A stretch of 64,000 nt of DNA from Candidatus Parcubacteria bacterium (GTDB lineage: Bacteria > Patescibacteriota > Patescibacteriia > Magasanikbacterales > UBA922). Below, piece after piece: positions 3,692 through 45,430 of the stretch. Under the pieces are notes generated by a model. It ran no database searches. It saw only the letters and a program-made list of their open reading frames with translations, and was not told the DNA's origin. The stretch covers positions 187 through 64,186 of the forward strand of contig PKTJ01000066.1 of assembly GCA_002869205.1 (NCBI GenBank), read 5' to 3'. Position 1 is the stretch's first letter. The number at the start of each line of letters is the position of its first letter. The position numbers were made by a program, and so were the translations under genes.

Positions 3692-3739
3692 AACCCTACC
3701 CATTCCCTCCCCTAGTAGGGGAGGGTCGGGGGAGGGGTT
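3692..3739. repeat. GC-rich nested-palindrome intergenic repeat, copy 1 (core CCCTCCCCTAgTAGGGGAGGG)
   Basis: Near-identical ~47-nt elements at 24503-24549 (inverted) and 45384-45430. Sits in the divergent intergenic region between the clp gene and pgm. Confidence 0.6.
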
Positions 3740-3789
3740 GCAAAGCAATAGTATAGTTTTATAATTCGGAATAAATATTTTTATTTTCT

Positions 3790-5154
3790 ATGAGCTTTCC
3801 AGATCACATATTCAAGGCATACGATATTCGTGGGCTATATCCACAAGAATTAGACGAAAAAATGGCATATAACATGGGTCGTGCTTATGCTGAATTTATG
3901 AAAAAAGATACTGGAAAAGACGATCTGAAACTCGTGGTCTGTCAGGATATGAGAGACTCTTCTATTCCGCTCAAAAAAGAGTTGGTTCGCGGTATGCTTG
4001 AGCAAGGAGTCGATATTGTTGACATTGGTCTTGCCTCCACCCCAACGTTTTATTTTGGTGTGAGTTTTTATGGGTATGATGGAGGTGTCCAGGTTACGGC
4101 ATCGCATAATCCAGGAGAGTATAATGGATTCAAGATTGTGCGTGCTCGCGCAGTGCCTATTAGTGGTGAGACAGGAATTCATGAGATCCGAGATATGGTT
4201 AGAGGTGCTCAATTTGATCCAGTGGAAAAACAAGGGCAGATTGAAACACGAGAAGGGGTTCTCGAAGAGCAGATTGCTTATGCACTCAAACATATTGATT
4301 ACAAATCAATCAAACCATTGAAAGTCGTGGTAGACACTGGGAATGGTATGGGCGCTCCTATTATTGAGGAGTTGTTTAAACATTTGCCATGTGAACTTGA
4401 TAAAATGTACTTTGAGCTTGATGGTAGTTTTCCAAATCATGAATCAAATCCGTTTAAGGAAGAAAATAACGTAGATATTCAAAATAGAATTAGGGAGACG
4501 GGGGCTGATTTAGGTATTGGGCTTGATGGAGATGGAGATCGCGTATTCTTTTTTGATGAGACAGGTAGAACAATTGATCCAGGTATTATTCGTGGTATTT
4601 TGGCACAGCTTGTGTTGCGCGATCATCCGGGTGCCGCAATTGGATACGATATTCGTCCGGGTAGAATTACACGCGATATGATCGAAGAAGGTGGTGGTAA
4701 ACCATTTGTAACACGTGTCGGTCATTCATTGATTAAAATGAAGGGTATTGAAATGAAAGCACCATTTTCAGGTGAATCATCTGGTCATTTCTTTTACAAT
4801 GAGCCACATGGGTTTTTTGAGATGCCTGCATTTATCATCCTTAATTTTTTAAAAGAGATATCGCAGAGTGGTAAGACGGTGAGTGAATATACAGCACCAC
4901 TCTATCGTTACTCACATTCTGGTGAAATTAATTTTAATGTGGATGACAAAGAAAAAGTATTGCAATTACTAAAAGAAAAATTTGCCGACTCAAAGATTAA
5001 TGATCTTGATGGATTATCTTTTGAGTACGAGGATTATTGGTTTAATGTGCGACCAAGTAATACTGAGTCTTTACTTCGGTTAAATTTGGAAGCCAAGACA
5101 GACGAGATTATGAAGGAAAAAGTTGAAGAGGTAACACGCGTTATTGAAAGTTAA
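3790..5154 (+). CDS. phosphoglucomutase/phosphomannomutase (alpha-D-phosphohexomutase family)
   Basis: TASHNPGEYNGFK phosphoserine loop, GDGDGDR metal loop, FDIRG N-terminus. Confidence 0.9.
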   Translation: MSFPDHIFKAYDIRGLYPQELDEKMAYNMGRAYAEFMKKDTGKDDLKLVVCQDMRDSSIPLKKELVRGMLEQGVDIVDIGLASTPTFYFGVSFYGYDGGVQVTASHNPGEYNGFKIVRARAVPISGETGIHEIRDMVRGAQFDPVEKQGQIETREGVLEEQIAYALKHIDYKSIKPLKVVVDTGNGMGAPIIEELFKHLPCELDKMYFELDGSFPNHESNPFKEENNVDIQNRIRETGADLGIGLDGDGDRVFFFDETGRTIDPGIIRGILAQLVLRDHPGAAIGYDIRPGRITRDMIEEGGGKPFVTRVGHSLIKMKGIEMKAPFSGESSGHFFYNEPHGFFEMPAFIILNFLKEISQSGKTVSEYTAPLYRYSHSGEINFNVDDKEKVLQLLKEKFADSKINDLDGLSFEYEDYWFNVRPSNTESLLRLNLEAKTDEIMKEKVEEVTRVIES

Positions 5155-5200
5155 GAATTACATAATTAAAAAAGACGTGTGCAGCACGTCTTTTTTTGTT

Positions 5201-5968
5201 TTAATTATTTTGTATCCATCCGGTAATCTTTGTCGCCACATTTCTCGGTGCTAGTCTATTTGCAAACGCAAGAAGTTTGTTTCTAAATCCTGGTATCACT
5301 ACACGTTTGTTTTTTATCAGTCCTCGATATCCAACATAGGCGACTTCGTCGGCATTCATAACCTTCATTGTTTTGGGAAAGCGTAGTTCGGCAGCTTTTT
5401 CAAAACCAGTCCGAGTAGGGCCAGGACACAGTGTAGTGACACTCACGCCGGTATTTTTTAATTCTTCTCCAAGAGCTTCTGAGAAATGAAGTACAAATGC
5501 TTTACTTGCATAATATACTGCCATGCCAGGACCTGGTTGGAATGCTGCGGTTGAGGCGATGTTTAAAACTTTTCCACTTTTTTTAGATATCATGTCTGGT
5601 AAGAAAAGTTTTGTAAGTTCTGTCAGTGCAGAGATATTTATTTTGATCATGTCGAGTTCTTTTGCTAGATTTGTTTCTGTAAATTTTCCATATAATCCAA
5701 ACCCAGCATTATTCACTAGTATGTCTATAGTAATATTGTTTTCTTTTATCTCAGCATACAGTTTTTGAGGTGCGTCATCGTCAGTAAGGTCGTGGGTAAA
5801 TACATGGGTTTGAATATCGTGTGTACTCGAAAGTTCTTTTGCAATTGTATCTAGTTTTTCTTTATTACGTGCCACCAAAACGATATTGTGATTGTTTTGT
5901 GCAAAACGTTTACATAGCTCATATCCTATACCACTTGATGCGCCAGTGATGAGTACTGTTTTTTGCAT
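5201..5968 (-). CDS. short-chain dehydrogenase/reductase (SDR) family oxidoreductase
   Basis: TGASSGIG cofactor motif, NNAG, YxxxK (YYASKAF). Confidence 0.85.
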   Translation of the reverse strand: MQKTVLITGASSGIGYELCKRFAQNNHNIVLVARNKEKLDTIAKELSSTHDIQTHVFTHDLTDDDAPQKLYAEIKENNITIDILVNNAGFGLYGKFTETNLAKELDMIKINISALTELTKLFLPDMISKKSGKVLNIASTAAFQPGPGMAVYYASKAFVLHFSEALGEELKNTGVSVTTLCPGPTRTGFEKAAELRFPKTMKVMNADEVAYVGYRGLIKNKRVVIPGFRNKLLAFANRLAPRNVATKITGWIQNN

Positions 5969-5978
5969 AATATATCTA

Positions 5979-6632
5979 TTAGATTTCTATGTCTTTGAGA
6001 GATTCTGACAAGAAAATAGTATCAAAATTTCCATTAAAAAATTCTTTTGGATGAAGTGCGCGAGTTACCATGAGGAGGTTTTTTTCAATAACATTTTCAG
6101 CTTTCTTGTGATTTGCGAGTCCTGTGTTGAATCCTGCTTGATGGTATGCATCGTTCACAAGTTGTGAACAAAAAAATTGTTGTTGTTTTGATGCAAAAAA
6201 GAAATCAAAAGGTTTGCCAATTTGTTTTCGTGCATAGCGCACAGTTTTCTTTATTATTGTTTTTTTGTGTTTTTTGAGACGTGGTCTGAGAATAGCGAGC
6301 GTATCATATTCTGAAAAGAAATTTCTAAATTTTTCTCTTACAACACCATCTGAAACTGCATGTATGACACGTCCGCCACCGGTATAGATACATGCATGCG
6401 TGACAGGACCGCGTATGAATAAGCCACTTGCCCTTCTGTGGTTTCCGACCAAGAGCATGTCTCCTTTTTGGATTATTTTTAGTGCATTTTTATAATCTTG
6501 TGGAGTAAGATTATTTTTTCGCCACGTAACTTTTGTAACCCCAATCAAAAAAATAATATTTCCAAATATTTTTTTGAATACTGAAGCATTCTCTTCAAAA
6601 TTTTTTATGAGATGATATCTATAGGATTTCAT
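5979..6632 (-). CDS. YiiX/YaeF-like permuted papain-fold (NlpC/P60-related) putative amidase
   Basis: FFCSQLV cysteine motif and HAV/HACIY histidines; family assignment made from memory of motifs only. Confidence 0.45.
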   Translation of the reverse strand: MKSYRYHLIKNFEENASVFKKIFGNIIFLIGVTKVTWRKNNLTPQDYKNALKIIQKGDMLLVGNHRRASGLFIRGPVTHACIYTGGGRVIHAVSDGVVREKFRNFFSEYDTLAILRPRLKKHKKTIIKKTVRYARKQIGKPFDFFFASKQQQFFCSQLVNDAYHQAGFNTGLANHKKAENVIEKNLLMVTRALHPKEFFNGNFDTIFLSESLKDIEI

Positions 6633-6639
6633 TTTTTGT

Positions 6640-7509
6640 TTATACTAGTCCACGAAGTTTTTTAATACGATCTTCTGCTGGTGGATGTGTAGAAAAGAAT
6701 TTTGAAAAGCCCTTTCCTTTGAGAGGGTTTGAAATGAAGAGGTGGGCTGTCGCAGTGCTTGCGGTAGGGAGAGCTGAAGATTTGGAAATTTTTTCAAGCG
6801 CTCGCGCAAGACCTTCTGGATATCTTGTTAGAAGTGCGCCAGATGCATCTGCAAGGTATTCGCGTTTTCGTGAGATAGCGAGTTTGATGAGTTCGGCGAT
6901 AATAGGGGAGAGTATGAGTAAAATCAGTCCGATAATCGCAAAATATCCACTTCCTTTACTATCACTTTTTCCACCACCATACCATCGTGCACGGAAAAAC
7001 CAATTACTAATCAGAGATATTGTTCCGACAAGGACGACTACAATGGTCATGAGTCTAATGTCGAAATTTTTGATATGAGATATTTCATGTGCGATCACTC
7101 CTTCGAGTTCTTCGTTTTCGAGTGCTTTTACAATTCCTGTGGTGACAGCTACTGATGCGTGCTCTGGATCTCTACCTGTGGCAAATGCATTCATGGCAGG
7201 GGAGTCTATAATATATACTTTTGGGGTCGGGATTCCGGCGGTAATAGCCATGTTTTCTACCATGCGATATACATATGGATCAGCTTCCTTCGTTGTTTCT
7301 CTGGCGCCGGTAGAGCGTAGTGCGATTTTGTCTCCCTTGTAGTAGCTTATGAGTGTCATGAGAACAGAAATAACCATAGCACCCACGACCATAGCGTATC
7401 CACCGCCATAATATACATCGAGTGCCCAGCCGATTGCGAGAATGATTATCATAAACACAAAGATGAGAATCTTTGTCTTGCGTTTGTTTGAGTCTATTTG
7501 AGAATACAT
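6640..7509 (-). CDS. htpX: protease HtpX (M48 zinc metalloprotease)
   Basis: HEISH zinc motif, N-terminal TM helices, typical HtpX length; adjacent LemA as in many genomes. Confidence 0.9.
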   Translation of the reverse strand: MYSQIDSNKRKTKILIFVFMIIILAIGWALDVYYGGGYAMVVGAMVISVLMTLISYYKGDKIALRSTGARETTKEADPYVYRMVENMAITAGIPTPKVYIIDSPAMNAFATGRDPEHASVAVTTGIVKALENEELEGVIAHEISHIKNFDIRLMTIVVVLVGTISLISNWFFRARWYGGGKSDSKGSGYFAIIGLILLILSPIIAELIKLAISRKREYLADASGALLTRYPEGLARALEKISKSSALPTASTATAHLFISNPLKGKGFSKFFSTHPPAEDRIKKLRGLV

Positions 7510-7597
7510 ATTATTTAGTATTTAGTTCGTAGCCAATAGCCAATAGAAAATTTACAAAAGGTATTCCTATTGGTTGTAAATTATTGGTTGTGAACTT

Positions 7598-8164
7598 TTA
7601 GAGTTTTACTTCGATATTCTCACGTTCAGTTGCATCTTCAATTTCGAAGAATACAAATTTCTCAAATCGTTTAAACATTCCTGCAATAACATTGTTTGGG
7701 AATGATTCAATTTTGATATTGAAATCACGTACATTGCCGTTGTAAAATCTACGTGCTGCCATGATTTTGTTTTCAGTATCAGAAAGTTCGTCCATGAGCT
7801 GCATAACATTTTGATTTGCTTTCAAATCTGGATATGCTTCCATAGCTACTTTCAAATCACGCATCATTGAGTTGATTTGTGTTTCTGATTTTGCAAGACC
7901 TTCTGTGTCACCAGCTTCTTGTGCTTTCATAGCATCAGCACGAGATTTGGTAATGTTTTCGAGTAGTTCACGCTCGTGTTTCATGTATCCTTTCACACTA
8001 TTGACCAAATTTGGAATGAGGTCGTGACGACGCTTGAGTTGTACATCAATATCACTCCAAGATTCTTTCGTGCGATTTTGGAGTTTGATAAGTACGTTGT
8101 AGACACCAATAATCCAAAAGAGGACAACGGCGAGGATAATAAGGATCGCGAATAATACTGGCAT
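7598..8164 (-). CDS. lemA: LemA family membrane protein
   Basis: N-terminal TM helix followed by the conserved LemA core (KESWSDIDVQLKRRHDLIPNLV...RRFYNG). Confidence 0.85.
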   Translation of the reverse strand: MPVLFAILIILAVVLFWIIGVYNVLIKLQNRTKESWSDIDVQLKRRHDLIPNLVNSVKGYMKHERELLENITKSRADAMKAQEAGDTEGLAKSETQINSMMRDLKVAMEAYPDLKANQNVMQLMDELSDTENKIMAARRFYNGNVRDFNIKIESFPNNVIAGMFKRFEKFVFFEIEDATERENIEVKL

Positions 8165-8271
8165 AATATAAACGGTTACGTGGATAAGTTTCCACTATTG
8201 ATTAAGATACTACATTATGAGATAATGATACTGTTATTTTACGCTAATTTATAGCTTTTCGTCAATATATT

Positions 8272-9477
8272 ATGATTACTGTACTACTTTTTATACTTAT
8301 CTTAGGGGTTTTAGTAATTGCTCATGAATTTGGACATTTTATTACCGCACGTATGAGTGGTATGAAGGTCTATGAATTTGGTTTTGGGTATCCGCCGAGG
8401 GTATTTAGTTTCTATAGAGATCCAGAGACAAAGAAAATTAAAATTATCTGGGGCAAAGGAAAGAGTAATTTGAAGAAGACTGTTTCAGGAGATGAGCAAC
8501 AAGATGAGTTTCCTGGTATGCTTTGGTCAATTAACCTTTTACCAATTGGTGGTTTTGTACGTATTAAGGGAGAGAATGGTGAGGAAGCTCAAGATCCTGA
8601 TAGTTTTGGTGCTCACAAAGCGTGGAAACGTATTGTTGTTTTGGTTGCCGGCGTTACCATGAATGTAATTTTGGCTGGTATTGTGCTTGGTGTTGGATTC
8701 ATGATCGGATTACCTACAGACATGTCCCAAGGTGTTGATAAACATGCTCAGGTTTTAGAAAGTCCGAGTATTATTGTTCAGCAAGTTCAGCCTCATACTC
8801 CAGCAGAGGAGGCAGGTGTAAAATTTGGAGACAAAATTTTGCGTGTTGGTGAAGGAGATACAGAGTGGACAAAAGAAAAAGAGTGGAATGGTGAGTCTGT
8901 AGATTCGATGTCTTTTATATCATTTGTAAATGAGCGTGAAGGAGAAGAGATTTCTCTTGTTATTGCTCGTGGTGAAGAAGAGTTTATTACCACGTTAGTG
9001 CCTGAGGTTTTTGAAGGAGAAGAGGTGGCGAAAATAGGTGTTGCATTGGCTGACGCAGGCATTGTTCGTTATCCGTGGTTTATTGCAATTTACAAAGGTT
9101 TTGTCGCAGCAGTGTTTGGTCTCATGAATATCTTTATCGCTTTTTATTACTTGATTAAGAATCTGATGTTGGGGCAAGGTCTGTTGTTTGATGTCGCAGG
9201 ACCAGTAGGTATTGCAAATATTGTGGGACAGAGCGCTAAGCTCGGAATTAATTATCTTTTGAATGTGACAGCCATGCTTTCTCTTAGTTTGGCGGCTATC
9301 AATATTTTGCCAATTCCTGCTCTTGATGGTGGTCGTATATTGTTTATTTTGATAGAAAAAATAATTCGTCGTCCTGTCCCTATAAAGTATGAACAACTTG
9401 CTCATACTATTGGATTTATGTTGCTTATGTTACTTGTGGTTGTGGTCACATGGCGCGATGTGGTAGGGTTATTTTAA
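8272..9477 (+). CDS. rseP: RIP metalloprotease RseP (site-2 protease, M50) with PDZ domain
   Basis: HEFGH near the N-terminus, PDZ-like middle, LDGG motif near the C-terminus, multiple TM helices. Confidence 0.9.
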   Translation: MITVLLFILILGVLVIAHEFGHFITARMSGMKVYEFGFGYPPRVFSFYRDPETKKIKIIWGKGKSNLKKTVSGDEQQDEFPGMLWSINLLPIGGFVRIKGENGEEAQDPDSFGAHKAWKRIVVLVAGVTMNVILAGIVLGVGFMIGLPTDMSQGVDKHAQVLESPSIIVQQVQPHTPAEEAGVKFGDKILRVGEGDTEWTKEKEWNGESVDSMSFISFVNEREGEEISLVIARGEEEFITTLVPEVFEGEEVAKIGVALADAGIVRYPWFIAIYKGFVAAVFGLMNIFIAFYYLIKNLMLGQGLLFDVAGPVGIANIVGQSAKLGINYLLNVTAMLSLSLAAINILPIPALDGGRILFILIEKIIRRPVPIKYEQLAHTIGFMLLMLLVVVVTWRDVVGLF

Positions 9478-9486
9478 GTACGATAT

Positions 9487-9771: not shown

Positions 9772-9781
9772 TTATATTTTT

Positions 9782-10195: not shown

Positions 10196-10205
10196 CTATA
10201 TTTTT

Positions 10206-11237: not shown

Positions 11238-11248
11238 ATTTTTGAAAT

Positions 11249-13720: not shown

Positions 13721-13797
13721 TTTGGTGATGTAATAAATTGTGGTATAATACTTTCACCTTTTAAACTTTTTACTTTATAAACTAACTTGCCTGTCAT

Positions 13798-14148: not shown

Positions 14149-14156
14149 TACTAATA

Positions 14157-14813: not shown

Positions 14814-14828
14814 GTTTTTCATAAAATA

Positions 14829-14860: not shown

Positions 14861-14879
14861 TCATACAAGACAATATTCA

Positions 14880-19922: not shown

Positions 19923-19958
19923 TCCCTCTGGCAAAAACCAGAGGGATTTATTTTTCTT
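19923..19958 (+). terminator. rho-independent terminator after dnaE
   Basis: TCCCTCTGG-caaaaa-CCAGAGGGA followed by a T-run. Confidence 0.7.
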
Positions 19959-20034
19959 TGGAGGCGCCGTCAAGAAACGACGCCTGTCGGGGAGGGGAAC
20001 GCCCCGCCGCCCGAAGGCGGCGGGAGTAGAGCGT

Positions 20035-21078
20035 TCAGCGAGTTGTGCGGATCGAGGTGTCCCAGTGGTGGTGGTAGATGATGTGACCGAGGTCTGTGAG
20101 CCACGAGACGACACGGATCTTGCCCGACTTGACGAAGGGGTTCAAGAACTGTCGATTCACGAGCGGGACCGTGTCTGCGACGTAGAGGCGATCGAGCGGC
20201 GAGTGATCGAGCTGCAGGTTCTCCACCGCGTCACCACACAGAATGGCGTGCGTAACGATTGCCCAGAATTCGTGGATCTCGGCACGTTCTCGGACGGTGT
20301 TAGCTGTCCTCAGATTCGTGCTGACTGTCGCCGCTTCATCGTCCACAGACAGAACCAGTGCACCTTCGAGTTCATCGACATCTCGATAGATGTCTTTGAT
20401 CTCGACGTCGCGGCTGTTTCCACGACGTTTGTCACCAAACGTCGTGAAGATGTCACAGTCGAGCTCGTCGGCCACGTTCGTGACAGCTTCCTCATAGCGC
20501 TTCTTGGCGCCGTTGTCTGGGTAGTGTACGACGATCTTGTCGTGAGTTTGCAGCGCTTCTTCGAGCGCCTGCTTGAATACGCGCTTGAACATACTCACTT
20601 CGGTGATGAGACCAGGGTCACCGGCCATCACAACCTGCGAAGCGTGGAGATCGACGGAGATGATTCTGTCGAGTCTGCCTTGCGCGGCCGTCTTCATCAG
20701 CGAGACGATGAGGGGTGGAAGAGCGAACTCGTCGTCAGCTTCGTCTCTGTCGGATCGCGAGAGCGGGAAGTAGGCGGTGATGACGGTGATTCGGGCGGCT
20801 CTTCTGCCTGCCACGTGGTTGAGCAAGAAGAATAGGTTCACGAGCATGTCGGGGGTGCCAGGGCCACTGGTCAAGATCACGCAGTCGTGACCGCCGATGT
20901 GCTTCTTCTTCAGCTTGATGAAGGGTTCTTTGCTGCTGCGCCGACCGAAGATCGGAGACGCGATGTCGACAGGCGTCTCTTTCCTTTCGATCTGCTCTTT
21001 GAGAAGGGTGGCGATGTCTTCGAATCCGGGCATGGGAACGAGCGTGAGCGCGCCGTGCTGGCTGTGTCTGTCTTTCAT
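20035..21078 (-). CDS. divergent ribose-phosphate pyrophosphokinase (PRPP synthetase) family protein, second copy
   Basis: Aligns along its whole length to Prs (HDCVILTSG..RITVITAYFPLSRSDRD..DLHASQ..KRRGNSRDVE..SVDDEAATVST). Signature loops are altered: GYARQDRK becomes PLSRSDRD and DTGGT becomes EAATVST. GAGGG ribosome-binding site 8 nt before the ATG. Confidence 0.7.
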   Translation of the reverse strand: MKDRHSQHGALTLVPMPGFEDIATLLKEQIERKETPVDIASPIFGRRSSKEPFIKLKKKHIGGHDCVILTSGPGTPDMLVNLFFLLNHVAGRRAARITVITAYFPLSRSDRDEADDEFALPPLIVSLMKTAAQGRLDRIISVDLHASQVVMAGDPGLITEVSMFKRVFKQALEEALQTHDKIVVHYPDNGAKKRYEEAVTNVADELDCDIFTTFGDKRRGNSRDVEIKDIYRDVDELEGALVLSVDDEAATVSTNLRTANTVRERAEIHEFWAIVTHAILCGDAVENLQLDHSPLDRLYVADTVPLVNRQFLNPFVKSGKIRVVSWLTDLGHIIYHHHWDTSIRTTR

Positions 21079-21158
21079 AACGAAACCCTCGTAATTAGAT
21101 CAAGAAAACGACCTCCCCGGCCGTCTCCTCGATGTGTGAAATGAGCAAACATGTCACC

Positions 21159-21188
21159 ATAATAATTGTTTTGAGTTGTCATGTCAAC
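21159..21188 (-). promoter_or_regulatory. sigma70-like promoter for the prs-like gene (TTGACA-17-TATTAT)
   Basis: Minus-strand -35 at 21183-21188 and -10 at 21159-21164, between the udk terminator and the prs-like ribosome-binding site. Confidence 0.55.
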
Positions 21189-21202
21189 CATAAAAAAAAC
21201 GA

Positions 21203-21233
21203 ACACCCCGAGGCCGAAGCCACCGGGGTTTTA
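21203..21233 (-). terminator. rho-independent terminator downstream of udk
   Basis: Minus strand AAAACCCCGGTGGC-ttcg-GCCTCGGGGTGTT followed by T8. Confidence 0.65.
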
Positions 21234-21239
21234 GTTCGC

Positions 21240-21863
21240 TCAGGATGGGTGGAATCCGTTGAGCATCTGTTCGAGTCCTGCCTGAATGAACAGGCGTGCG
21301 ATCTCGTTGTTCCCGCCGTGTGGCACGATCAGGTTCGCGTGTCTGCGGGTCGGGTGACAGAATTCGTCGTGCATGGGTGCGACAGTGCCTTCCCATTGCT
21401 CGAGGATACCTTCGAGTTTGCGTCCTCGTTCCAGAACGTCTCGTTTGATACGACGCGCGAGACGTGTGTCTCCGGGCGTGTCGACGTAGATCTTGATCTT
21501 GGCGAGGCTTACCAATTCAGGTACAGCGAGCGCGAGTATTCCTTCGGCGATGATGAACGTTTTTGGGTCCACCTGGACACGCTCAGGTTCACGCGAATGC
21601 GTGTTGTAGTCCCAGCGCGGGGTCTGGACCGATACACCATCGACGAGCTCGCGAACGTGTGACACCATTAGGATGTTGTCGAAAGACCCTGGGTGGTCGA
21701 AGTTGCCGTTCTGGACGTAGGGAGACTCGGGGTCGTAATAGAAGTCGTGGCAGATTCGACAGCACTTGTCATCGCCGAGCATTCGGATGATTTCACGCGC
21801 GAGCGTTGTCTTACCAGAACCAGTGCCACCAGCGACGATGATCACGACAGGCGTGTTTTCCAT
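21240..21863 (-). CDS. udk: uridine/cytidine kinase
   Basis: P-loop GGTGSGKTT, NFDHPGSFD, FIIAEGIL, YVDTPGDTRLARRIKRDVLERGR, ANLIVPHGGNN; near colinear with E. coli Udk. Start placed at MENTPVV, which has GGAGG 9 nt upstream. Confidence 0.85.
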   Translation of the reverse strand: MENTPVVIIVAGGTGSGKTTLAREIIRMLGDDKCCRICHDFYYDPESPYVQNGNFDHPGSFDNILMVSHVRELVDGVSVQTPRWDYNTHSREPERVQVDPKTFIIAEGILALAVPELVSLAKIKIYVDTPGDTRLARRIKRDVLERGRKLEGILEQWEGTVAPMHDEFCHPTRRHANLIVPHGGNNEIARLFIQAGLEQMLNGFHPS

Positions 21864-21959
21864 CTTGAGCTTCCTCCAATTTGCAACAAAGCAGGCCATC
21901 GGCCTGCTCCTTTGTTGTATTTCAGAAATATTGTAACGCTACTTTTGTAGTTTGTCAAA

Positions 21960-22225: not shown

Positions 22226-22317
22226 GAGTTTATAAAGTTTAAAAGTTTAAAAAGTATACAAACTAACTATATGTAAAATACTTTACAAACTTTATAACTT
22301 TAGTAACTTTCGAACTC
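22226..22317. repeat. AAAGTT-motif inverted-repeat element (MITE-like), overlaps the 3' end of prs
   Basis: Left arm GAGTTTATAAAGTTTAAAAGTTTAAAAAG and right arm CTTTACAAACTTTATAACTTTAGTAACTTTCGAACTC are imperfect inverted copies; related elements at 53854-53931 and 54097-54183. Confidence 0.5.
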
Positions 22318-24453: not shown

Positions 24454-24502
24454 GCGTTACTTGCTTTGAGTTAAAAATATAAATACTTAGATCATTACCA
24501 TA

Positions 24503-24549
24503 CACCCCTCCCTAACCCTCCCCTAATAGGGGAGGGAATGGGTGGGGTT
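24503..24549. repeat. GC-rich nested-palindrome intergenic repeat, copy 2 (inverted orientation)
   Basis: Its reverse complement matches copy 3 nearly base for base. Confidence 0.6.
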
Positions 24550-24582
24550 TAGCACAAAATAAATAAACAAACATCCTCATCA

Positions 24583-25611
24583 TCATCTAAAATTATTATA
24601 AATTTTCCAACTTGGGTCTGCCTGAATTTTGTTCCAAGCAGTAAATTTTTTATTTTTTGCATGATTGTATGCAGCTACAGCAATCATTGTAGCGTTATCC
24701 ATACAATAGGGTAGAAGAGGAAAAGTAAAAGTAGGCTGTGGTGAAACTTTTTTAATTTCTTTTTCTAATGTGTTTCTGAGTTTTTTGTTTGCTGATACAC
24801 CGCCAGCTAGAATAATAGTTTTTGGATTATATTTTTTTGTGGCTTTGAGTGTTTTTGAAACCAATAAGTCGACAATTGCTTGCTCAAAGCTTGCGCAAAA
24901 ATCATTTTTATCGGTATTAGGATGATCTCGTAAATGATAGAGCGCCGCAGTCTTTAATCCTGAAAAACTCATATCAAAATCTTTTGAATGTATCATGGGG
25001 CGAGGAAAGTCTATTGCTTTTGGATTTCCGGCTTCGGCAAACTTGGAAATCTTTGGTCCACCAGGATAATCGAACTCCAAGAGTTTGGCAACTTTGTCAA
25101 AACATTCTCCTGCAGCGTCGTCTCGTGTGCCACCAACTTTTTTATAGCGTCCTTGTTCTTTGCTTAATATAATTTCTGTATGTCCACCAGACACAACTAA
25201 AGATAATACTGGAAAATTTATATTTCTTTTTCTTCCCTCTTTTTCATTTTCTATTAATACAGAATGTATATGACCTTCGATATGGTTCATGCCAACTATA
25301 GGTATGTCCCATAGATACGAAAGTGTTTTTGCTGTTTCTACGCCCACGATGAGCCCGGTGATGAGCCCGGGTCCCGAAGTAACTGCAATAATATCAGGCT
25401 TTTCAAAATCTTTCATAATTTCTTCTACAACGGGCGTTATTTGTTCTGCATGTTTTCGTCCGGCAATCTCTGGCACGACACCACCATACTTTTTGTGTAT
25501 TTCAATTTGACTTGCAGTTTTTTCTGCAAGTATGTTTATTTTATTGCCTGTTATATCAATCAGCGCGACTGATGTGTCATCACACGATGATTCTATGCCG
25601 AGTATTTTCAC
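24583..25611 (-). CDS. tsaD: tRNA N6-adenosine threonylcarbamoyltransferase
   Basis: Kae1/TsaD motifs: GIESSCDDTSVAL, HIEGH metal site, GGVSAN. Confidence 0.9.
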   Translation of the reverse strand: MKILGIESSCDDTSVALIDITGNKINILAEKTASQIEIHKKYGGVVPEIAGRKHAEQITPVVEEIMKDFEKPDIIAVTSGPGLITGLIVGVETAKTLSYLWDIPIVGMNHIEGHIHSVLIENEKEGRKRNINFPVLSLVVSGGHTEIILSKEQGRYKKVGGTRDDAAGECFDKVAKLLEFDYPGGPKISKFAEAGNPKAIDFPRPMIHSKDFDMSFSGLKTAALYHLRDHPNTDKNDFCASFEQAIVDLLVSKTLKATKKYNPKTIILAGGVSANKKLRNTLEKEIKKVSPQPTFTFPLLPYCMDNATMIAVAAYNHAKNKKFTAWNKIQADPSWKIYNNFR

Positions 25612-26204: not shown

Positions 26205-26230
26205 TTTTTTAATTTTTGGATCATTATTTT

Positions 26231-26274
26231 TTCCAACTTTCCAACTTTACAACTTTCCAACTTTCCAACTTTTT
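26231..26274. repeat. 8-bp tandem repeat (CCAACTTT)x5, i.e. AAAGTTGG on the coding strand; the third unit reads AAAGTTGT and creates TAA
   Basis: Read directly from the sequence. Confidence 0.9.
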
Positions 26275-27485: not shown

Positions 27486-27495
27486 ATAATATGCT

Positions 27496-27549
27496 GATTT
27501 CCAGATAACCCAGATTTACGGATATCTGAATTATCTGGAAATCCGAATC
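27496..27549. repeat. palindromic intergenic repeat family P (core GGATTTCCAGATAATCCAGATTTACGGATATC), copy 1
   Basis: 13-bp perfect arms GATTTCCAGATAA/TTATCTGGAAATC; 5 copies in the window. Confidence 0.65.
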
Positions 27550-27558
27550 TTAAAATGA

Positions 27559-30180: not shown

Positions 30181-30184
30181 GGCA

Positions 30185-30227
30185 GAGTTAGAAAGTTTAT
30201 AAAGTGAAAAAGTTTTAAAGTTTACAG
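30185..30227. repeat. AAAGTT-motif repeat (GAGTTAGAAAGTTTATAAAGTGAAAAAGTTTTAAAGTTTACAG) in the nadE-nadA gap
   Basis: Shares GAGTTAGAAAGTTTA-AAAGT with the in-frame repeat at 42577-42616. Confidence 0.5.
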
Positions 30228-31822: not shown

Positions 31823-31830
31823 GTAATATA

Positions 31831-31894
31831 CGGATTTCCGGATAATCCAGATTTACAGATATCTGTCGATCAGGATTATCCGGAGATAAGGATC
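31831..31894. repeat. palindromic intergenic repeat family P, copy 2 (between rplJ and rplL)
   Basis: CGGATTTCCGGATAATCCAGATTTACAGATATCTGTCGATCAGGATTATCCGGAGATAAGGATC. Confidence 0.65.
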
Positions 31895-31933
31895 TAAAAG
31901 ATTAAGTTAAATTATCATAAATTTACAAAACGT

Positions 31934-35721: not shown

Positions 35722-35735
35722 AACCTACAAAATAT

Positions 35736-36122: not shown

Positions 36123-36123
36123 T

Positions 36124-37891: not shown

Positions 37892-37907
37892 AATATTGAG
37901 ATACGGA

Positions 37908-37972
37908 TTTCCAGATACCCTAAGGGCATCCATCTTCGGGGATAATCCAGATTTACGGATTTTGTATCTGTA
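37908..37972. repeat. palindromic intergenic repeat family P, copy 3 (with a 23-nt ACCCTAAGGGCATCCATCTTCGGGG insert)
   Basis: Read directly from the sequence; copy 5 carries the same insert. Confidence 0.6.
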
Positions 37973-37989
37973 TATCAGAATATTATTTT

Positions 37990-39489: not shown

Positions 39490-39511
39490 TTGAAGATTAA
39501 ATCGTTATAGT

Positions 39512-40513
39512 ATGAAAAAGGTAGGAATTGACCTCGGTACAACTAATATACTTGTTTTCGTTCCTAAGCGAGGTATTGTTATTAATGAGCCATCGGTGGT
39601 AGCAATCTCAAAAGGAGACGGAAAAATTCTTGCAGTTGGTGGTGAAGCAAAAGAAATGATTGGACGTACTCCCGATACTATTATTGCAGAGAGACCACTC
39701 AAAGATGGTGTGATTGCAAGTTATAAAACAACAGAAGCTATGCTTCGTTATTTTATCAACAAGGCAATCGGTGGTATGCGACTTTTTCGACCAGAAGTAA
39801 TGGTTGCTGTTCCTGCAGGTATTACATCTACTGAACGTCGTGCGGTTATTGACGCTGCGATGGCAGCAGGTGCAAAAGCAGCTTACATTATAAAAGAACC
39901 TATTGTTGCGGCAATCGGAGCTGATATTCCTATTGGTAGTGCGTCAGGTCATATGATTATTGATATTGGTGGAGGTACAGCAGAAATCGCTGTGATTTCA
40001 CTCGGCGGTATTGTATCAGTAGGATCTGTGAGGATCGGTGGAAATAAATTTGATCAATCAATTGCAGAATATGTTCGTAGAAAATATGGTTTGGCAATAG
40101 GGGACAGAAGTGCCGAAGAGGCAAAAATTAGTGTTGGTTCTGCTATGTTTATGGATCAGCCTCTGAGTATGGAAGTAAAAGGACGAGATATGATCTCAGG
40201 ACTTCCGCGGACTATCAAAATTACTTCTGATGATACTACTGAAGCATTGCAACATGACCTTGAGGGTTTGGTAGAAGCAGTAAAAGATGTACTTCATAAG
40301 ACACCACCAGAATTGTCAGCTGATGTTATGGATAAAGGCATTATTATGTCCGGTGGTTCAAGTCAGCTGAGAAACCTAGATGAACTCATTGCTCAGGCGA
40401 TTGGTGTGGCAACATATGTGGCAGAAGAACCATTGCTTTGTGTGGCAAAAGGAACAGGTATTGCACTTGAAAATTTAGATAATTACAAACGGTCAGTTTT
40501 GGCCACAAAATAA
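39512..40513 (+). CDS. mreB: rod shape-determining protein MreB
   Basis: Actin-fold phosphate motifs (GIDLGTTN, DIGGGT) and typical length. Confidence 0.95.
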   Translation: MKKVGIDLGTTNILVFVPKRGIVINEPSVVAISKGDGKILAVGGEAKEMIGRTPDTIIAERPLKDGVIASYKTTEAMLRYFINKAIGGMRLFRPEVMVAVPAGITSTERRAVIDAAMAAGAKAAYIIKEPIVAAIGADIPIGSASGHMIIDIGGGTAEIAVISLGGIVSVGSVRIGGNKFDQSIAEYVRRKYGLAIGDRSAEEAKISVGSAMFMDQPLSMEVKGRDMISGLPRTIKITSDDTTEALQHDLEGLVEAVKDVLHKTPPELSADVMDKGIIMSGGSSQLRNLDELIAQAIGVATYVAEEPLLCVAKGTGIALENLDNYKRSVLATK

Positions 40514-40672
40514 TTTATTAACCTGGGTGGCGTGTAATTCGCCAACTGGACGTGAGCCCAGTACCGTATGGTACAGGGTATAGCCGTCGATCCACATTTA
40601 GTGGAATGATTCCGTGCAACTCGGAAGCCAACCGTATAGTCGGGACCCTGACGTTAGTCGGGGTATCACATT
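40514..40672 (+). ncRNA. candidate structured RNA / cis-regulatory leader (GC-rich, multi-hairpin) between mreB and the EamA transporter
   Basis: About 52% GC in an AT-rich genome, with at least five local hairpins (TGGCG-tgtaatt-CGCCA, GTACC-gtat-GGTAC, CCAC-attta-GTGG, GGAA-tga-TTCC, CTGGG...CCCAG). The track ORFs on the minus strand here look spurious. Identity unknown. Confidence 0.35.
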
Positions 40673-41680
40673 GTGTTCCTGCATAGTGTGATAATAAGGA
40701 AATATATGAAGAAAACATATGTTGGTGCTTTGAGCATCATGCTCGCAGCTTTTTTGTGGGCGTTTGATGGTGTGGTTCTCACACCATGGATTATGAAATT
40801 GGGTCTCTATGACGTCCCAATTTTTGTTTTTATGTTCCACGCAGTAGGATCATTATTTTTGTCCTACTTTTTTATTACCAAGAGACAAGAACTAAAAAAG
40901 CTTGATTGGAAAGATTGGGGCGCATTTGTTTTGGTTGGTGTATTTGGAGGAGCGCTCGGAACCATGGGAATTGTTGGGGCAATTATTTTTGTACATAGTC
41001 ATCATCTAAATATTTCGGTTGTATTATTACTCCAAAAATTACAGCCTATTTTTGCTATTTTGCTTGCTATCTTAATTCTCAAAGAGCGTCCAAAGATACA
41101 ATTTTATGTACTGGCGGCTTTTGCATTGGTTGGTAGTTACTTTTTAACATTTGGATTTGGTATGCCAGATTTGAGTGCGGGTGGTATGTTGATACCTGCA
41201 CTTCTTGCGCTACTTGCTGCGTTTTCATTTGGTTCATCAACTGTATTTTCCAAACGTGCGATTACAAAGGTGAGTCACGGCACAGGAACTATGCTTAGAT
41301 TTTATATCACTACACTTGTCATGATTGTGATTATCGCAGCCGTGTCATTGTTGAAAGCTTTCGGGATGGAGATATCGTATGCAGGGTTTGGTGGATTTAG
41401 TATTGTTGGCTGGAAATTGATTGGTGCATTTGTTGTAGTTGCTCTAACAACAGGAATTTTTGGTATTTTTATCTATTATTATGGACTTAAGCGTATCATG
41501 GCTTCACGTTCGACTATTTACGAACTTATGTTTCCTGTAAGTTCTATCTTTCTTGAATGGCTCATTCATGACAAGACATTGAACATAGGGCAATGGTTTG
41601 GTACTATAGTACTGTTCACTGCAATGATTTTTATTGCACGTCTAAGTAAATCATATGAAAAAAACAGTGAAATTATATAA
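40673..41680 (+). CDS. EamA/DMT family transporter (likely start at MKKTYVG, 40706)
   Basis: Ten TM helices in a duplicated 5+5 EamA pattern. Confidence 0.7.
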   Translation: MFLHSVIIRKYMKKTYVGALSIMLAAFLWAFDGVVLTPWIMKLGLYDVPIFVFMFHAVGSLFLSYFFITKRQELKKLDWKDWGAFVLVGVFGGALGTMGIVGAIIFVHSHHLNISVVLLLQKLQPIFAILLAILILKERPKIQFYVLAAFALVGSYFLTFGFGMPDLSAGGMLIPALLALLAAFSFGSSTVFSKRAITKVSHGTGTMLRFYITTLVMIVIIAAVSLLKAFGMEISYAGFGGFSIVGWKLIGAFVVVALTTGIFGIFIYYYGLKRIMASRSTIYELMFPVSSIFLEWLIHDKTLNIGQWFGTIVLFTAMIFIARLSKSYEKNSEII

Positions 41681-42128
41681 TGTATTTTTTCCAATCTATG
41701 TAATGGTTTTTTTTCCACCAATAATTTTTTTGGTACTCATTGGGAACTTTGTAATTGACGCGGTTGTCATAGTGTCTGTTCTTTATTTCAGTAAAGCATT
41801 GTCTACTATAAAGCATAAAAGAAAATACATTACAAAGGCTTGGGGCTATGGTTTTTTGGCGGATATTTGTGCGGCGTTGCTTTTGCTTGTGCTAGAATGG
41901 GCTGGTCTTGTATATTCTTACAAACCATTTGAATCAGTATCTAACGTAATGTTTATATTTTTTGCTATTGTTGTTGGCGGTGTGTTTGTTGGAATATTCA
42001 ATTATAGATTAGCTCTTCGAAATGGTCTTAATAAAAAGATTGCTTTGCGTCAAGCATTGTTTATGGGGATTATTACTGCACCATGGATGTTTTTATTACC
42101 TCTAAGTTTATTTGGTTTTAATATTTGA
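41655..42128 (+). CDS. hypothetical small membrane protein
   Basis: Four predicted TM helices; TGA stop overlapping the next ATG (ATGA). Confidence 0.45.
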   Translation: MKKTVKLYNVFFPIYVMVFFPPIIFLVLIGNFVIDAVVIVSVLYFSKALSTIKHKRKYITKAWGYGFLADICAALLLLVLEWAGLVYSYKPFESVSNVMFIFFAIVVGGVFVGIFNYRLALRNGLNKKIALRQALFMGIITAPWMFLLPLSLFGFNI

Positions 42129-42129
42129 T

Positions 42130-43233
42130 ATGAAAATAGGGATAGACGCATCACGAGCTAATGAAACACAAAAGACCGGTGTAGGTTGGTATGCTTATCA
42201 TGTGATACAAGAATTGAAAAAACAAACACCTCGCGATGTCGAGGTTGTTTTGTATACGAATAAACCACTTCAAGGTGACCTTGCTGACTTGCCAAGTGGA
42301 TGGACACAAAAAGTACTCAAATGGTCACCAAAAAGATTGTGGACGCAGGTGAGGTTGAGTTGGGAGATGTTATTACATCGACCAGATGTTTTGTTTATTC
42401 CAGCTCATGTGTTCCCATTGATTCATCCCAAGAAAACAGTAATGACAGTGCATGATATTGCAGCTATAACATTTCCTGGGAGCTATAGTTGGTTTGAGAG
42501 GTGGTACAGTGTGTGGTCTGCACGCGTAGCTTTGAAAAAGTTATGGAAAATAATTACGCCGTCAGAGTTTACGAAGAGTGAGTTAGAAAGTTTAAAAGTT
42601 AGAAAGTTTAAAAGTGATAAAATTCATGTGATTCATCATGGGTATGATAAGAGGTATAGTGAGAATGAGAATAAGGTTGAGATTGAAAAGGCGTTAGACA
42701 AGTACGGATTGAAGAAACCATTTCTCATGAGTATTGGTCGTCTTGAAGAAAAGAAAAACACGGTAAGAATTATCAAAGCATTTGAGAAATTACGGCTTAC
42801 GACTGAAAACTTGCAGCTCATTCTTATCGGTAATCCAGGTCATGGTTATGACAAAGTGAAAAAGGTGATTGACAATTCAAAATATAAAGAGGATATTATT
42901 ACACCTGGTTGGGTAGACAATAATGATCTACCAATCTTGATGAGCGGTGCAGAAGTATTTGTTTTCCCGAGTCTCTATGAAGGGTTTGGAATCCCTGTAC
43001 TTGAATCCCTGGCAAGTGGCACACCTGTCGTTACCTCAAAAGGTAGTTGTCTAGAAGAAGTTGGTGGAGACGTGTGTATATATGTTGATCCAGCCGATGT
43101 TGATAGTATTGTGCATGGTATTTCAGACGCTTTTGATGCATCAGAGATTAGAATTCAACAGGGCTTGAAACATACAGAAGGTTTTTCGTGGGAAAAGTGT
43201 GCTAAAAAGACACTTGAGACATTATTGTCTTGA
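42130..43233 (+). CDS. family 4 (GT-B) glycosyltransferase
   Basis: C-terminal EX7E region (EGFGIPVLESLASGTPVVTS) and GT4 N-terminal domain. Start placed at MKIGIDAS. Contains an in-frame 16-bp tandem duplication. Confidence 0.8.
   Translation: MKIGIDASRANETQKTGVGWYAYHVIQELKKQTPRDVEVVLYTNKPLQGDLADLPSGWTQKVLKWSPKRLWTQVRLSWEMLLHRPDVLFIPAHVFPLIHPKKTVMTVHDIAAITFPGSYSWFERWYSVWSARVALKKLWKIITPSEFTKSELESLKVRKFKSDKIHVIHHGYDKRYSENENKVEIEKALDKYGLKKPFLMSIGRLEEKKNTVRIIKAFEKLRLTTENLQLILIGNPGHGYDKVKKVIDNSKYKEDIITPGWVDNNDLPILMSGAEVFVFPSLYEGFGIPVLESLASGTPVVTSKGSCLEEVGGDVCIYVDPADVDSIVHGISDAFDASEIRIQQGLKHTEGFSWEKCAKKTLETLLS
42577..42616 (+). repeat. in-frame tandem duplication (TTAGAAAGTTTAAAAG)x2 inside the GT4 CDS
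   Basis: Encodes SELESLKVRKFKS. Same motif family as the intergenic AAAGTT repeats. Confidence 0.8.
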
Positions 43234-43262
43234 GGTTAAAATTATGCTATCCTTAGACATAT

Positions 43263-44156
43263 ATGTCAGATATCATAGGTCATCAGAGAATCCTACAATT
43301 TTTCGATTCGGTCATAACGCATGGTAATTTGAGTCATGCATATTGTTTTGTAGGTCCAAAATCTGTTGGTAAGAAGGCTGTTGCCGAACGTCTGGCGTCT
43401 CAGATTTTGAATATTGATTATAATAAATTATACACCTCTCCAGATTTTAGTCTGGTAGAGCGTTCAATAAACGAAAAGACAGGTAAGACTCGAAAAGATA
43501 TTAGTATCGATCAAATTCGTAATTTAATTTCTATACTTTCTCAAAGTGCGTTTGCAAAAGATGGTTACAAGGTTGCAGTTGTCGATGAAGCGGATATCAT
43601 GAGTGTGGGTGCATCAAATGCATTACTCAAGACACTCGAAGAACCAAAAAAGAATACTGTACTTTTTATTATTACAGACGACGAATCAAAATTATTACCA
43701 ACGATCCAGTCCAGGTGTCAGATGATTTATTTTTCACCTGTTGCAAATAAGGAGATTCAAAAACACATGAAAGATGGTAGTACTGATGAAATTATTGAGT
43801 GTGCACATGGATTACCGGGAAAAGCAATTACTTGGAGTCGGGACGCAGGTAATTTTCAAGAATATAAACATGAGGTAAGTCGTTTCCAAAGTTTGTTTGG
43901 AAAAAACTTTTATGAAAAATTGGCACTAGTGGAGGAACTGTTTGGAGACAAAACTGATCACATATTAGCAAGAAGTCGTCTACAAGAAGTGCTAAATATT
44001 TGGCAGATAGAATTGCATAACAGTATCAAGCAAGAAAAAATTGCTGCACAAAATTTTGTTCAGATTAGTAAGAACATCAAACAAGCACGTACGTTACTTG
44101 GAAAAAACGTACATCCACGACTTTTGGTTGAACACATTTTATTACAATTACCATAG
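43263..44156 (+). CDS. holB: DNA polymerase III delta-prime subunit (clamp-loader AAA+)
   Basis: HAYCFVGPKSVGKK Walker-A-like, SRC-like region, typical length. Confidence 0.8.
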   Translation: MSDIIGHQRILQFFDSVITHGNLSHAYCFVGPKSVGKKAVAERLASQILNIDYNKLYTSPDFSLVERSINEKTGKTRKDISIDQIRNLISILSQSAFAKDGYKVAVVDEADIMSVGASNALLKTLEEPKKNTVLFIITDDESKLLPTIQSRCQMIYFSPVANKEIQKHMKDGSTDEIIECAHGLPGKAITWSRDAGNFQEYKHEVSRFQSLFGKNFYEKLALVEELFGDKTDHILARSRLQEVLNIWQIELHNSIKQEKIAAQNFVQISKNIKQARTLLGKNVHPRLLVEHILLQLP

Positions 44157-44160
44157 GTCA

Positions 44161-44243
44161 GTTATAAGTCATAAGCTGTAAGTCGTAGTTTCCAATATCG
44201 ATATTTAATCTAAGGCTTACAGCTTAATATTTATAACTTATAA
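44161..44243. repeat. imperfect inverted repeat element (GTTATAAGTCATAAGCTGTAAG ... CTTACAGCTTAATATTTATAACTTATAAC)
   Basis: Read directly from the sequence; intergenic between holB and the BNR protein. Confidence 0.45.
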
Positions 44244-44252
44244 CTTTTATAT

Positions 44253-45335
44253 ATGAGAAAATATCTTATATCATTTTCCCTTGTATTTGCTGTTCTGTTG
44301 TTTACGGGGCAGAGTTGTGTCTTGGGACAAGATAATAAACCAAAGACTACTGGTCCTGCTGGTATGTTTGTTAGTGTTGATAAAGGTGAGACCTGGAAGG
44401 TCATTTCATCTATGCCTACTGTTGAGGGTGTAAAACAACTTACTAGTGTGAATGTCTATAGAGTCATAGAGGATCCTCAGGATCCAAAAGCTCTCTATTG
44501 GGCATCACGTGCCAATGGATTGTTCTATAGTTTTGATGATGGTAAGTCTTGGCAACGGCCAAGTGCTCCGGTGAACAGTTCGTTTATCTATGATGTAGCA
44601 ATTCATCCAGAAGATAGATGTACTATATATACGACTAAAGCACGTATTGTGTACAAAACTGAAGATTGTGGTCGTTCATGGGAAGAGGTGTATCAAGAGG
44701 GTAGACCAGCTGATATTATTACTTCAGTATCTTTTGATCCTCATGATTCACACCATATTTATCTTACTGAAACAAATGGAGATTTGCTCAAAAGTACAGA
44801 TCTAGGTAAGACGTGGTCAGTGGTGAATCGTTTTGGTGTATATGTGCGTGATGTTGAGTTCGATCCAAATAAAAATGATTTGATGTATGTCGTGACACGA
44901 GAAAAAGGACTGCGTCGTTCTAGAGACGGAGGAGCGACTTGGGAAGATCTCTCGGAAAAACTCAAGGTGTACCCTGGTTCACTTACGTATAGAAGATTTC
45001 TTGTGTATCCTAGCAACCCAGACCAAATTTATTGGGTTTCAAAATATGGTGTACTTATGTCACGTAACGCAGGGGATGACTGGGAACCTATTAATCTTGT
45101 GACGCCTCCAGGAAGTGTAGATATTTATGGATTTACCGTGAGTCCGCTCAATGATAAGGAAATATATTACACAGGTAGTATTGATTACAAATCTACATTC
45201 TATCGTAGTATGGACGGTGGTCAAACATGGGAAACACGCAGACTTCCTTCTGGACAATTGCCTACAGAGCTTCGTGCACATGGTGAGAATGATGGATGGT
45301 TGTATCTTGGATTTACCAATCCTGCATCTATTTAA
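44253..45335 (+). CDS. secreted BNR/Asp-box repeat beta-propeller protein
   Basis: Signal peptide and seven SxDxGxTW Asp-box repeats (SVDKGETW, SFDDGKSW, TEDCGRSW, STDLGKTW, SRDGGATW, SRNAGDDW, SMDGGQTW). Confidence 0.8.
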   Translation: MRKYLISFSLVFAVLLFTGQSCVLGQDNKPKTTGPAGMFVSVDKGETWKVISSMPTVEGVKQLTSVNVYRVIEDPQDPKALYWASRANGLFYSFDDGKSWQRPSAPVNSSFIYDVAIHPEDRCTIYTTKARIVYKTEDCGRSWEEVYQEGRPADIITSVSFDPHDSHHIYLTETNGDLLKSTDLGKTWSVVNRFGVYVRDVEFDPNKNDLMYVVTREKGLRRSRDGGATWEDLSEKLKVYPGSLTYRRFLVYPSNPDQIYWVSKYGVLMSRNAGDDWEPINLVTPPGSVDIYGFTVSPLNDKEIYYTGSIDYKSTFYRSMDGGQTWETRRLPSGQLPTELRAHGENDGWLYLGFTNPASI

Positions 45336-45383
45336 CTAGGACTAGTCGTAAAATTATTTGTTTGGATTTTGCTTTTTGTAACT

Positions 45384-45430
45384 AACCCCACCCGTTCCCT
45401 CCCCTAATAGGGGAGGGTCAGGGAGGGGTG
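45384..45430. repeat. GC-rich nested-palindrome intergenic repeat, copy 3
   Basis: AACCCCACCCGTTCCCTCCCCTAATAGGGGAGGGTCAGGGAGGGGTG. Confidence 0.6.

Follow-up and report, generated by a model that had tools for sequence, protein, structure and literature searches.

To our knowledge, repeats of the BoxC/PIT/TMECO type have no accepted function or mechanism of spread after 25 years, and their origin has been unexplained since the 1990s. Here we describe three near-identical copies of a G/C-rich intergenic element of this design in a 64-kb stretch of the genome of a Candidatus Parcubacteria bacterium (contig PKTJ01000066.1, positions 187 to 64,186; hereafter the window, to which all window counts refer, with a mean of ~38% GC). 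The class was first named BoxC, later PIT and later still TMECO, and its members are known from E. coli and further Proteobacteria (Hoyne et al. 2000 and Hoyne & Maher 2002, as far as these are reported in PMC4666352). The E. coli consensus, TMECO, is CCCTCNCCC-N3-6-GGGNGAGGG-N3-GGGNGAGGG (Holder et al. 2015, PMC4666352). E. coli K-12 carries 23 TMECO copies, all intergenic, in which the stems are conserved above the loops and the second loop is TTA or CCG. Five E. coli sites hold inverted opposite-strand pairs, the partners always being of a different subtype. Neither transposon association nor promoter or terminator activity was found for the E. coli elements, no phage association was reported, and TMECO-bearing loci vary more among strains (PMC4666352). 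The same E. coli loci have been named HPG1/HPG2 and described as a 'G4-hairpin-duplex switch', G4 being a G-quadruplex (Kaplan et al. 2016, PMC5100583). In archaea, the rPQS of Methanomicrobiaceae adopt hairpin, triplex and G4 forms in equilibrium in vitro (PMC8044849).

We read the window elements, with a probability of about 0.6, as non-autonomous, low-copy, insertion-polymorphic repeats of the BoxC/PIT/TM class that work at the level of DNA and have no dedicated regulatory role. Like BoxC/PIT/TMECO elements, they consist of a 9-nt C-rich stem, a short loop and a G-rich stem, to which a 3-nt loop (often TTA) joins a mirror G-rich stem. The triplet rule holds in both groups, whose G-rich half constitutes a four-tract G4 motif. 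Both are also intergenic and low in copy number, vary in content among close relatives and have no transposase nearby. The stems differ (CCCTCCCCT in the window, CCCTCNCCC in TMECO), as does the arrangement of opposite-strand partners. In E. coli these are separate motifs tens of nt apart, whereas in the window they share one hairpin within a 47-nt quasi-palindrome. Unlike the E. coli elements, those of the window reside in an AT-rich, small-genome host of the candidate phyla radiation (CPR), have conserved AT-rich arms and offer clear filled and empty sites. The archaeal rPQS resemble them as repeated intergenic G4 motifs near gene starts or ends, with an adjacent C3TC3-type tract complementary to two G-runs. 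They differ in being archaeal and one-sided, with longer G-runs and the C-tract 3' of the quadruplex sequence, and no arms or insertion polymorphism have been described for them.

The core of copy 1 lies at 3692-3739 on the + strand (AACCCTACCC-ATT-CCCTCCCCT-AGT-AGGGGAGGG-TCG-GGGGAGGGG-TT). That of copy 2 lies at 24503-24550 on the - strand (read on that strand, AAACCCCACCC-ATT-CCCTCCCCT-ATT-AGGGGAGGG-TTA-GGGAGGGG-TG), and that of copy 3 at 45384-45430 on the + strand (AACCCCACCC-GTT-CCCTCCCCT-AAT-AGGGGAGGG-TCA-GGGAGGGG-TG). The common layout, 5' to 3', is CCCC(A)CCC-N3-CCCTCCCCT-N3-AGGGGAGGG-N3-GGG(A)GGGGT, with GGG(A/T)GGGGT as an alternative form of the 3' G-tract across copies. An earlier note on this DNA had placed three copies at these positions, the middle one inverted, and had described them as G/C-rich cores in AT-rich DNA with flanks CCC(C/T)ACCC and GGG(G)AGGGG; our analysis agrees on each point. 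The note's family of dispersed intergenic repeats also stands: all copies are intergenic, and alignable copies, on whose existence elsewhere the note had made its proposal depend, are present in related metagenomic genomes.

The sequence departs strongly from chance. The 21-nt core CCCTCCCCTANTAGGGGAGGG occurs three times in the window against 0.00 expected (100 dinucleotide shuffles), and G4 or C4 motifs (four runs of at least 3 G, 1-7 nt apart) occur in the 64 kb only at these three sites, on both strands. A pyrimidine stem and purine stem joined by a 3-nt loop (CCCTCCCCT-N3-AGGGGAGGG) are present in all three copies. The segment AGGGGAGGG-N3-GGGAGGGGT is an exact mirror repeat; the third strand is GGGAGGGGT on the + strand and GGGTGGGGT on the - strand. 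A scan of the window by triplex rules required, beside a pyrimidine stem and its complementary purine stem, a third strand pairing by G.G:C, A.A:T and T.A:T. This returned seven sites against 0.17 in shuffles, and six of the seven are these elements, on both strands. The stems measure 9 nt in every copy and five of the six motifs have no mismatch; those of copies 2 and 3 are perfect on both strands. In copy 1 the motif occupies 3705-3738 on the + strand; on the - strand it occupies 3693-3725 and has one mismatched triplet.

Each copy is predicted to fold into a 9-bp apical stem with a 3-nt loop, below which come a 3x3 internal loop, 3 bp, a 1x1 A.A mismatch and a further 4-5 bp. The energies are -17.9 to -19.3 kcal/mol as DNA (z -3.3 to -4.9) and ~-35 kcal/mol as RNA, very stable on either strand. 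The 'long perfect hairpins' of the earlier note are therefore perfect only over the apical 9 bp. The A.A mismatch results from pairing CCCCACCC with GGGAGGGG and is conserved, because two overlapping opposite-strand triplex motifs share one hairpin. Among the eight copies of the lineage, the stems are invariant while the loops vary. The unpaired 3-nt spacers, the invariant G-runs and the A.A mismatch find no explanation in a hairpin model; the BoxC/PIT/TMECO design explains all three. A pure hairpin under selection for base pairing was rejected for this lineage: its stems are invariant, the mismatch and the unpaired spacers are conserved, and in a wider set of 93 two-sided elements only 42-54% have Watson-Crick pairs in the spacers.

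The stability of the fold could nevertheless point to a role in RNA, as a terminator independent of a U-tract, a stabiliser of the 3' end of the upstream mRNA or a structure in the 5' untranslated region. The hairpin of ~-35 kcal/mol on either strand fits such a role, as does the position of copies 2 and 3, which lie 34-49 nt 3' of the stop codon of the upstream gene, and REP-type mRNA stabilisers are an established precedent. Against this, copy 1 sits between predicted divergent promoters and is probably untranscribed. Predicted terminator-like sites with a U-tract number zero at any copy, Rfam has no match, and the invariant stems show no compensatory changes or covariation. Conservation of the A.A mismatch and of the unpaired spacers disfavours a pure hairpin function, and purine-motif triplexes are DNA-only structures that do not form in RNA (PMC4666352). 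We regard an RNA-level element as very improbable. Two narrower candidates were also rejected: a canonical terminator, as no T-run follows the hairpin, and a riboswitch or other known RNA, as Rfam 15 gave none at gathering thresholds and permissive scans reached 15-23 bits (generic hairpins) against gathering values of 37-100. The earlier note's view that the copies are not simply terminators is thus borne out.

The repeat is larger than its core. The length of about 47 nt given in the earlier note holds for the core; the full unit is longer, with AT-rich arms of ~50 nt on the 5' side and 28-52 nt on the 3' side, and measures roughly 120-145 nt with the core included. Five low-GC metagenome loci (L166, L195, L202, L203 and L219), all from sample Ga0233431, contain the window's exact core together with arms. 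The lineage arms read ...TTTGAATTATAAAATTATCT-GTTTGGTTATTTATTTTGCAnTnAA on the 5' side and ...TGTAATGAT...TTTTATARYTCAAAG on the 3' side, and arm sequences occur in the window only beside cores. In Ga0233431 the five copies lie on four contigs, and a fifth contig, carrying the frr orthologue, has no copy; the five contigs total 821 kb. Because arms and GC content are shared, we assume that all of these contigs come from a single genome. On that assumption, five copies per 821 kb indicate a low copy number in this sister population as well.

Orthologous sites differ in the presence of the units. Each of the three sites is compact and lacks the element in at least one relative, and the extra spacer DNA, ~125-165 nt, is absent from the compared relatives. 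For copy 3, the spacer from the BNR-repeat gene stop to the frr ATG is 145 nt here, compared to 20 nt in L239-241, which include the closest relative (Frr 92% identical), and 62 nt in L242-243 (76% identical). The extra DNA at 45336-45456 on the + strand (~121-125 nt, edges approximate) begins straight after the stop codon of the BNR-repeat gene. For copy 1, the clpB-PMM spacer is 224 nt here and 60 nt in L247 (PMM 79% identical). The L247 spacer lacks the left arm of copy 1, and homology stops at ATCAATTA, just before that arm. For copy 2, the whole tsaD-MFS spacer (24454-24582 on the - strand, core and arms) is 129 nt, whereas L248 (MFS protein 60% identical) has an 8-nt overlap of tsaD with the MFS gene. 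Copy 2 is kept in the sister species L202 (MFS protein 90% identical) and is identical in strain L249. This differing presence at orthologous sites implies that the units were gained at different times. Between L202 and the window, the copy 2 core is identical at 47 of 47 positions, the aligned flanking genes share 79% nucleotide identity and the arms ~65-80%; the core is thus under strong conservation after its arrival at a site.

Other changes were seen around these sites. At 24583-24600 the tsaD frame runs three codons further into the left arm of copy 2 than in L202, where the tsaD stop codon stands immediately before TTTGAATTATAA (L202 ~225-245); the inserted copy 2 unit is therefore now part of the coding end. 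In a relative at 75% identity the clpB-PMM spacer holds a different GC palindrome. Such a G/C-rich palindrome (GCCTGCCGGCAGGC) fills this spacer at L245 6010-6040, and in another Patescibacteria metagenome-assembled genome (MAG) the same GCCTGCCGGCAGGC directly abuts a triplex-type core (L068 ~2693-2720). It seems that several kinds of small palindrome rich in G/C have colonised CPR spacers.

The host of the window copies is a Parcubacteria/Magasanikbacteria-like MAG, nearest among named organisms to Candidatus Magasanikbacteria, and the window genes, annotated by Pfam and NCBIfam scans, are CPR housekeeping genes; an exact-protein look-up gave no record for two window proteins. Copy 1 lies in the divergent spacer between clpB (start at 3565, from the gene call in L244) and the PMM/PGM gene. 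The neighbours of copy 2 are tsaD and an MFS transporter gene, on the - strand, and those of copy 3 are the BNR-repeat gene and frr, on the + strand. Two copies are therefore between co-directional genes and one is in a divergent spacer, in line with the two kinds of placement given in the earlier note. The left arm of copy 1 (3644-3691, + strand) holds GAATTATAAAA (3648-3658) and GTTTAGCTATTTATTTTGC (3669-3687). Its right arm (3740-3789, + strand) ends at the PMM/PGM start codon and holds TTTTATAATTC (3756-3766), a perfect inverted repeat of 3648-3658. This right arm further bears a promoter-like pair, TTGCAA(3738)-16-TATAAT(3765).

These features could mark a portable promoter or insulator cassette, in which the core blocks read-through or parts divergent promoters while -10/-35 boxes in the arms drive the downstream gene. 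All three window copies are oriented with the downstream gene, their outer G-run ending 51-52 nt before its start codon. Copy 1 is flanked by predicted outward promoters, TTGCAA-16-TATAAT toward PMM (10/12 matches) and TTGATA-17-TATAAT toward clpB, and the perfect 11-nt inverted repeat of its arms reads TATAAT outward on both strands. The motif TTTTATARY recurs at a similar offset in four of seven independent copies, and insertion into former operon junctions, as for copies 2 and 3, would require a new downstream promoter. However, at copies 2 and 3 a promoter match is absent or weak (9/12), so promoter donation was rejected as a general feature, the strong match being confined to copy 1. The rule of orientation and distance also fails in the sister population: L219 runs antisense to each of its neighbours, the genes on either side of L166 are convergent, and 115 nt separate L195 from the next open reading frame (ORF). 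The downstream genes (PMM/PGM, MFS transporter and frr) are functionally unrelated, and E. coli PIT elements showed neither promoter nor terminator activity (PMC4666352). A constant distance is expected in any case, because a unit of fixed length lands in very short spacers. We therefore hold such a cassette to be unlikely.

The filled and empty sites also suit a mobile element of the REP or miniature inverted-repeat transposable element (MITE) type, whose core hairpin or arm repeats would be recognised by a transposase acting in trans (HUH/RAYT-like or IS630-like), its potential for unusual structure being incidental. All three sites are compact and free of the element in at least one relative, the unit is below 150 nt, and inverted repeats are found in the arms of some copies. 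A short non-coding unit with presence and absence at orthologous sites is itself a MITE-like trait. HUH transposases (IS200/IS605, RAYTs) recognise imperfect hairpins, which the conserved mismatch and internal loop may resemble, though only by analogy, and the frequent placement of copies at contig ends is typical of repeats. Correia-type MITEs of Neisseria, intergenic units of ~100-150 bp with inverted-repeat arms, strong hairpins and possible outward promoter boxes, resemble the window unit in size, intergenic placement, arms and hairpin, and we take them as a lead only. In the elements described here, most copies have weak or absent terminal repeats, no TA duplication could be shown, and the central G/C-rich triplex/G4 core has no Correia counterpart.

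Several observations speak against a transposon of this kind. Neither the window ORFs scanned and the precomputed Pfam hits nor the flanks of the relatives' copies yielded a transposase, and no target-site duplication can be defined. Inverted repeats are absent or degenerate in most copies: the match between the two arms in inverted orientation is significant for copy 1 (p<0.005) and L202 (p ~0.01) and not for the other six of eight copies, so terminal inverted repeats were rejected as a general feature. Copy number is low, with no GTAG-type signature and no BIME arrangement. The REP/BIME affinity raised in the earlier note finds no support here. REP/BIME and window elements are alike in being short, imperfectly palindromic, dispersed and intergenic. 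The latter lack the terminal GT[AG]G tetranucleotide and alternating clusters, occur as single isolated copies rather than in hundreds, and have a polypurine/polypyrimidine mirror design that REP do not. No RAYT (IS200/IS605-like TnpA) was present among the window ORFs scanned or the precomputed Pfam hits. Finally, the same core architecture occurs across phyla with unrelated flanks, which favours constraint on the core over a single transposon family. A REP/MITE-type element thus appears distinctly unlikely.

This wider distribution emerged from scans beyond the lineage. A core-only scan, using the hairpin pattern alone and one genome per species, gave at least 120 loci, and the matches listed come from Cyanobacteria, Chloroflexi, Patescibacteria, Bacteroidota, Proteobacteria, Planctomycetes and Armatimonadota, plus viral contigs. 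Among the matches listed, a mirror third strand lies within 2-5 nt of 77 of 143 hairpin cores (background 0.6% per side), and three of 143 have one on both sides. A third strand is therefore the norm, and cores with two are rare. Scanning metagenomes for the two-sided pattern gave 102 loci that differ widely in GC content; many have longer, fully complementary arms (e.g. CCCCATCCCCACCC...GGGTGGGGATGGGG). Watson-Crick pairing of the 3-nt spacers was seen in 42-54% of 93 unique two-sided elements, where chance would give 26-28%, so spacer pairing is optional.

In IMG/VR, 14 contigs of viral or proviral origin (L225-L238; 52-68% GC) contain triplex-type cores that are one-sided and have GGGGTGGGG-ATGGGG tails. 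BLAST against phage and plasmid records gave no match, to which the low-complexity filter may contribute. The end of JGI contig Ga0102541_1104843 (L122) coincides exactly with the left edge of copy 3, and at least 15 of the 102 metagenome matches (L123-L224) lie, by eye, within ~110 nt of a contig end. Such placement suggests that assemblies break at these repeats or hairpins.

As a repeat of the BoxC/PIT/TM class, the window element would be a fused form, with one central hairpin (CCCTCCCCT/AGGGGAGGG) followed by GGGAGGGGT on the + strand and GGGTGGGGT on the - strand. Either strand, once single-stranded, could fold into a hairpin, a purine-motif triplex or a G4, and the duplex could extrude an imperfect cruciform. 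The core would lie within an AT-rich unit that probably entered short intergenic spacers at separate times. We infer that it acts on DNA, as a structure-prone sequence during replication, repair or transcription. It may have spread by trans-mobilisation or by structure-induced repair or recombination, and its arms would supply promoter-like boxes incidentally, with a strong one at copy 1 only.

A number of points weigh against this interpretation. Class membership rests on architecture and not on shown homology: the strict TMECO consensus has no match in the window, and BLAST against 5,426 E. coli genomes found no similarity, to which the low-complexity filter may contribute. These two results make the elements a variant of the class by architecture, not TMECO. 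The E. coli triplex is stable in vitro and was undetected in vivo (PMC4666352), and for the window elements, in which the C-rich partner is on the same strand, ViennaRNA predicts a nested hairpin (-35 kcal/mol) far more stable than the G4 (-19 to -23 kcal/mol). The orientation and 51-52 nt spacing shared by the window copies could reflect a regulatory function. As for mobility, the junctions of copies 1-3 with the empty sites are AT-rich and ambiguous, so that no target-site duplication can be called, and terminal inverted repeats are clear in two of eight copies only. A mobilising enzyme was not found in the window, where neither the ORFs scanned nor the precomputed Pfam hits for the rest contained transposase or integrase domains.

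A bolder possibility, tentative and rather doubtful, is that the unit of ~130 nt, with the core as its cis-acting heart, actively inserts at gene boundaries and brings outward promoter boxes with it. Its insertion points would be directly behind stop codons and even between genes that once overlapped.

Several other features of the window were recorded. A second intergenic palindromic family (GGATTTCCAGATAATCCAGATTTACGGATATCTG...) occurs at 27487-27552, 31826-31899, 37895-37981, 46035-46080 and 52010-52119, where it fills short co-directional spacers (nadB/nadC, rplJ/rplL, frr/dtd, M16 peptidase/TIM); it is also found in L195 (301-364) and L074. The frr-dtd spacer is 37 nt here and 2 nt in L239, so this family also looks inserted. 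A third, short AT-rich family (AGAGTTAGAAAGTTTATAAAGT) is located at 22234-22260, 30184-30210, 42579-42621, 53855-53881 and 54113-54139, and inverted at 13760-13783 and 53893-53930, in part near the genes for tRNA-Thr and tRNA-Tyr. This family may represent a transcription signal (promoter or terminator) or a further repeat. At 26230-26272, the 3' end of nadB holds five tandem copies of the 8-nt repeat TTTCCAAC.

A GC island at 19950-21900 (55% GC, compared to 38% for the genome) is bounded by G/C-rich hairpins and has genes for a Pribosyltran_N-like protein (20035-21078) and a member of the PRK/uridine-kinase family (21240-21899). L248, in which prs and dnaE are immediate neighbours, lacks the island, and the same-species contig L249 has it; it was probably acquired horizontally. 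A second stretch of ~54% GC, at 61200-64000, has overlapping ORFs on both strands with no Pfam match. A Pif1-family helicase gene lies at 47104-48417, 1.7 kb 3' of copy 3, and is split in two in L121, an ENA assembly of the same strain. Pif1 helicases unwind G-quadruplexes, and this neighbouring gene could matter for tolerating G4 motifs.

The practical side of these findings is modest: the elements interrupt the assembly of metagenomes and can be taken wrongly for terminators or regulatory RNAs. What is new for the family is threefold. The class extends into the tiny AT-rich genomes of the CPR, in which each intergenic base is costly. It includes a compact form, with a complete motif on both strands around one shared hairpin. 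Clean filled and empty sites, together with conserved arms, are unusually clear evidence of recent gain, which work in E. coli could not show. If the unit does insert actively, BoxC/PIT/TM-type repeats would be mobile elements, or hitch-hikers on mobile elements, and this CPR genome would provide clean filled and empty sites for work on the mechanism.

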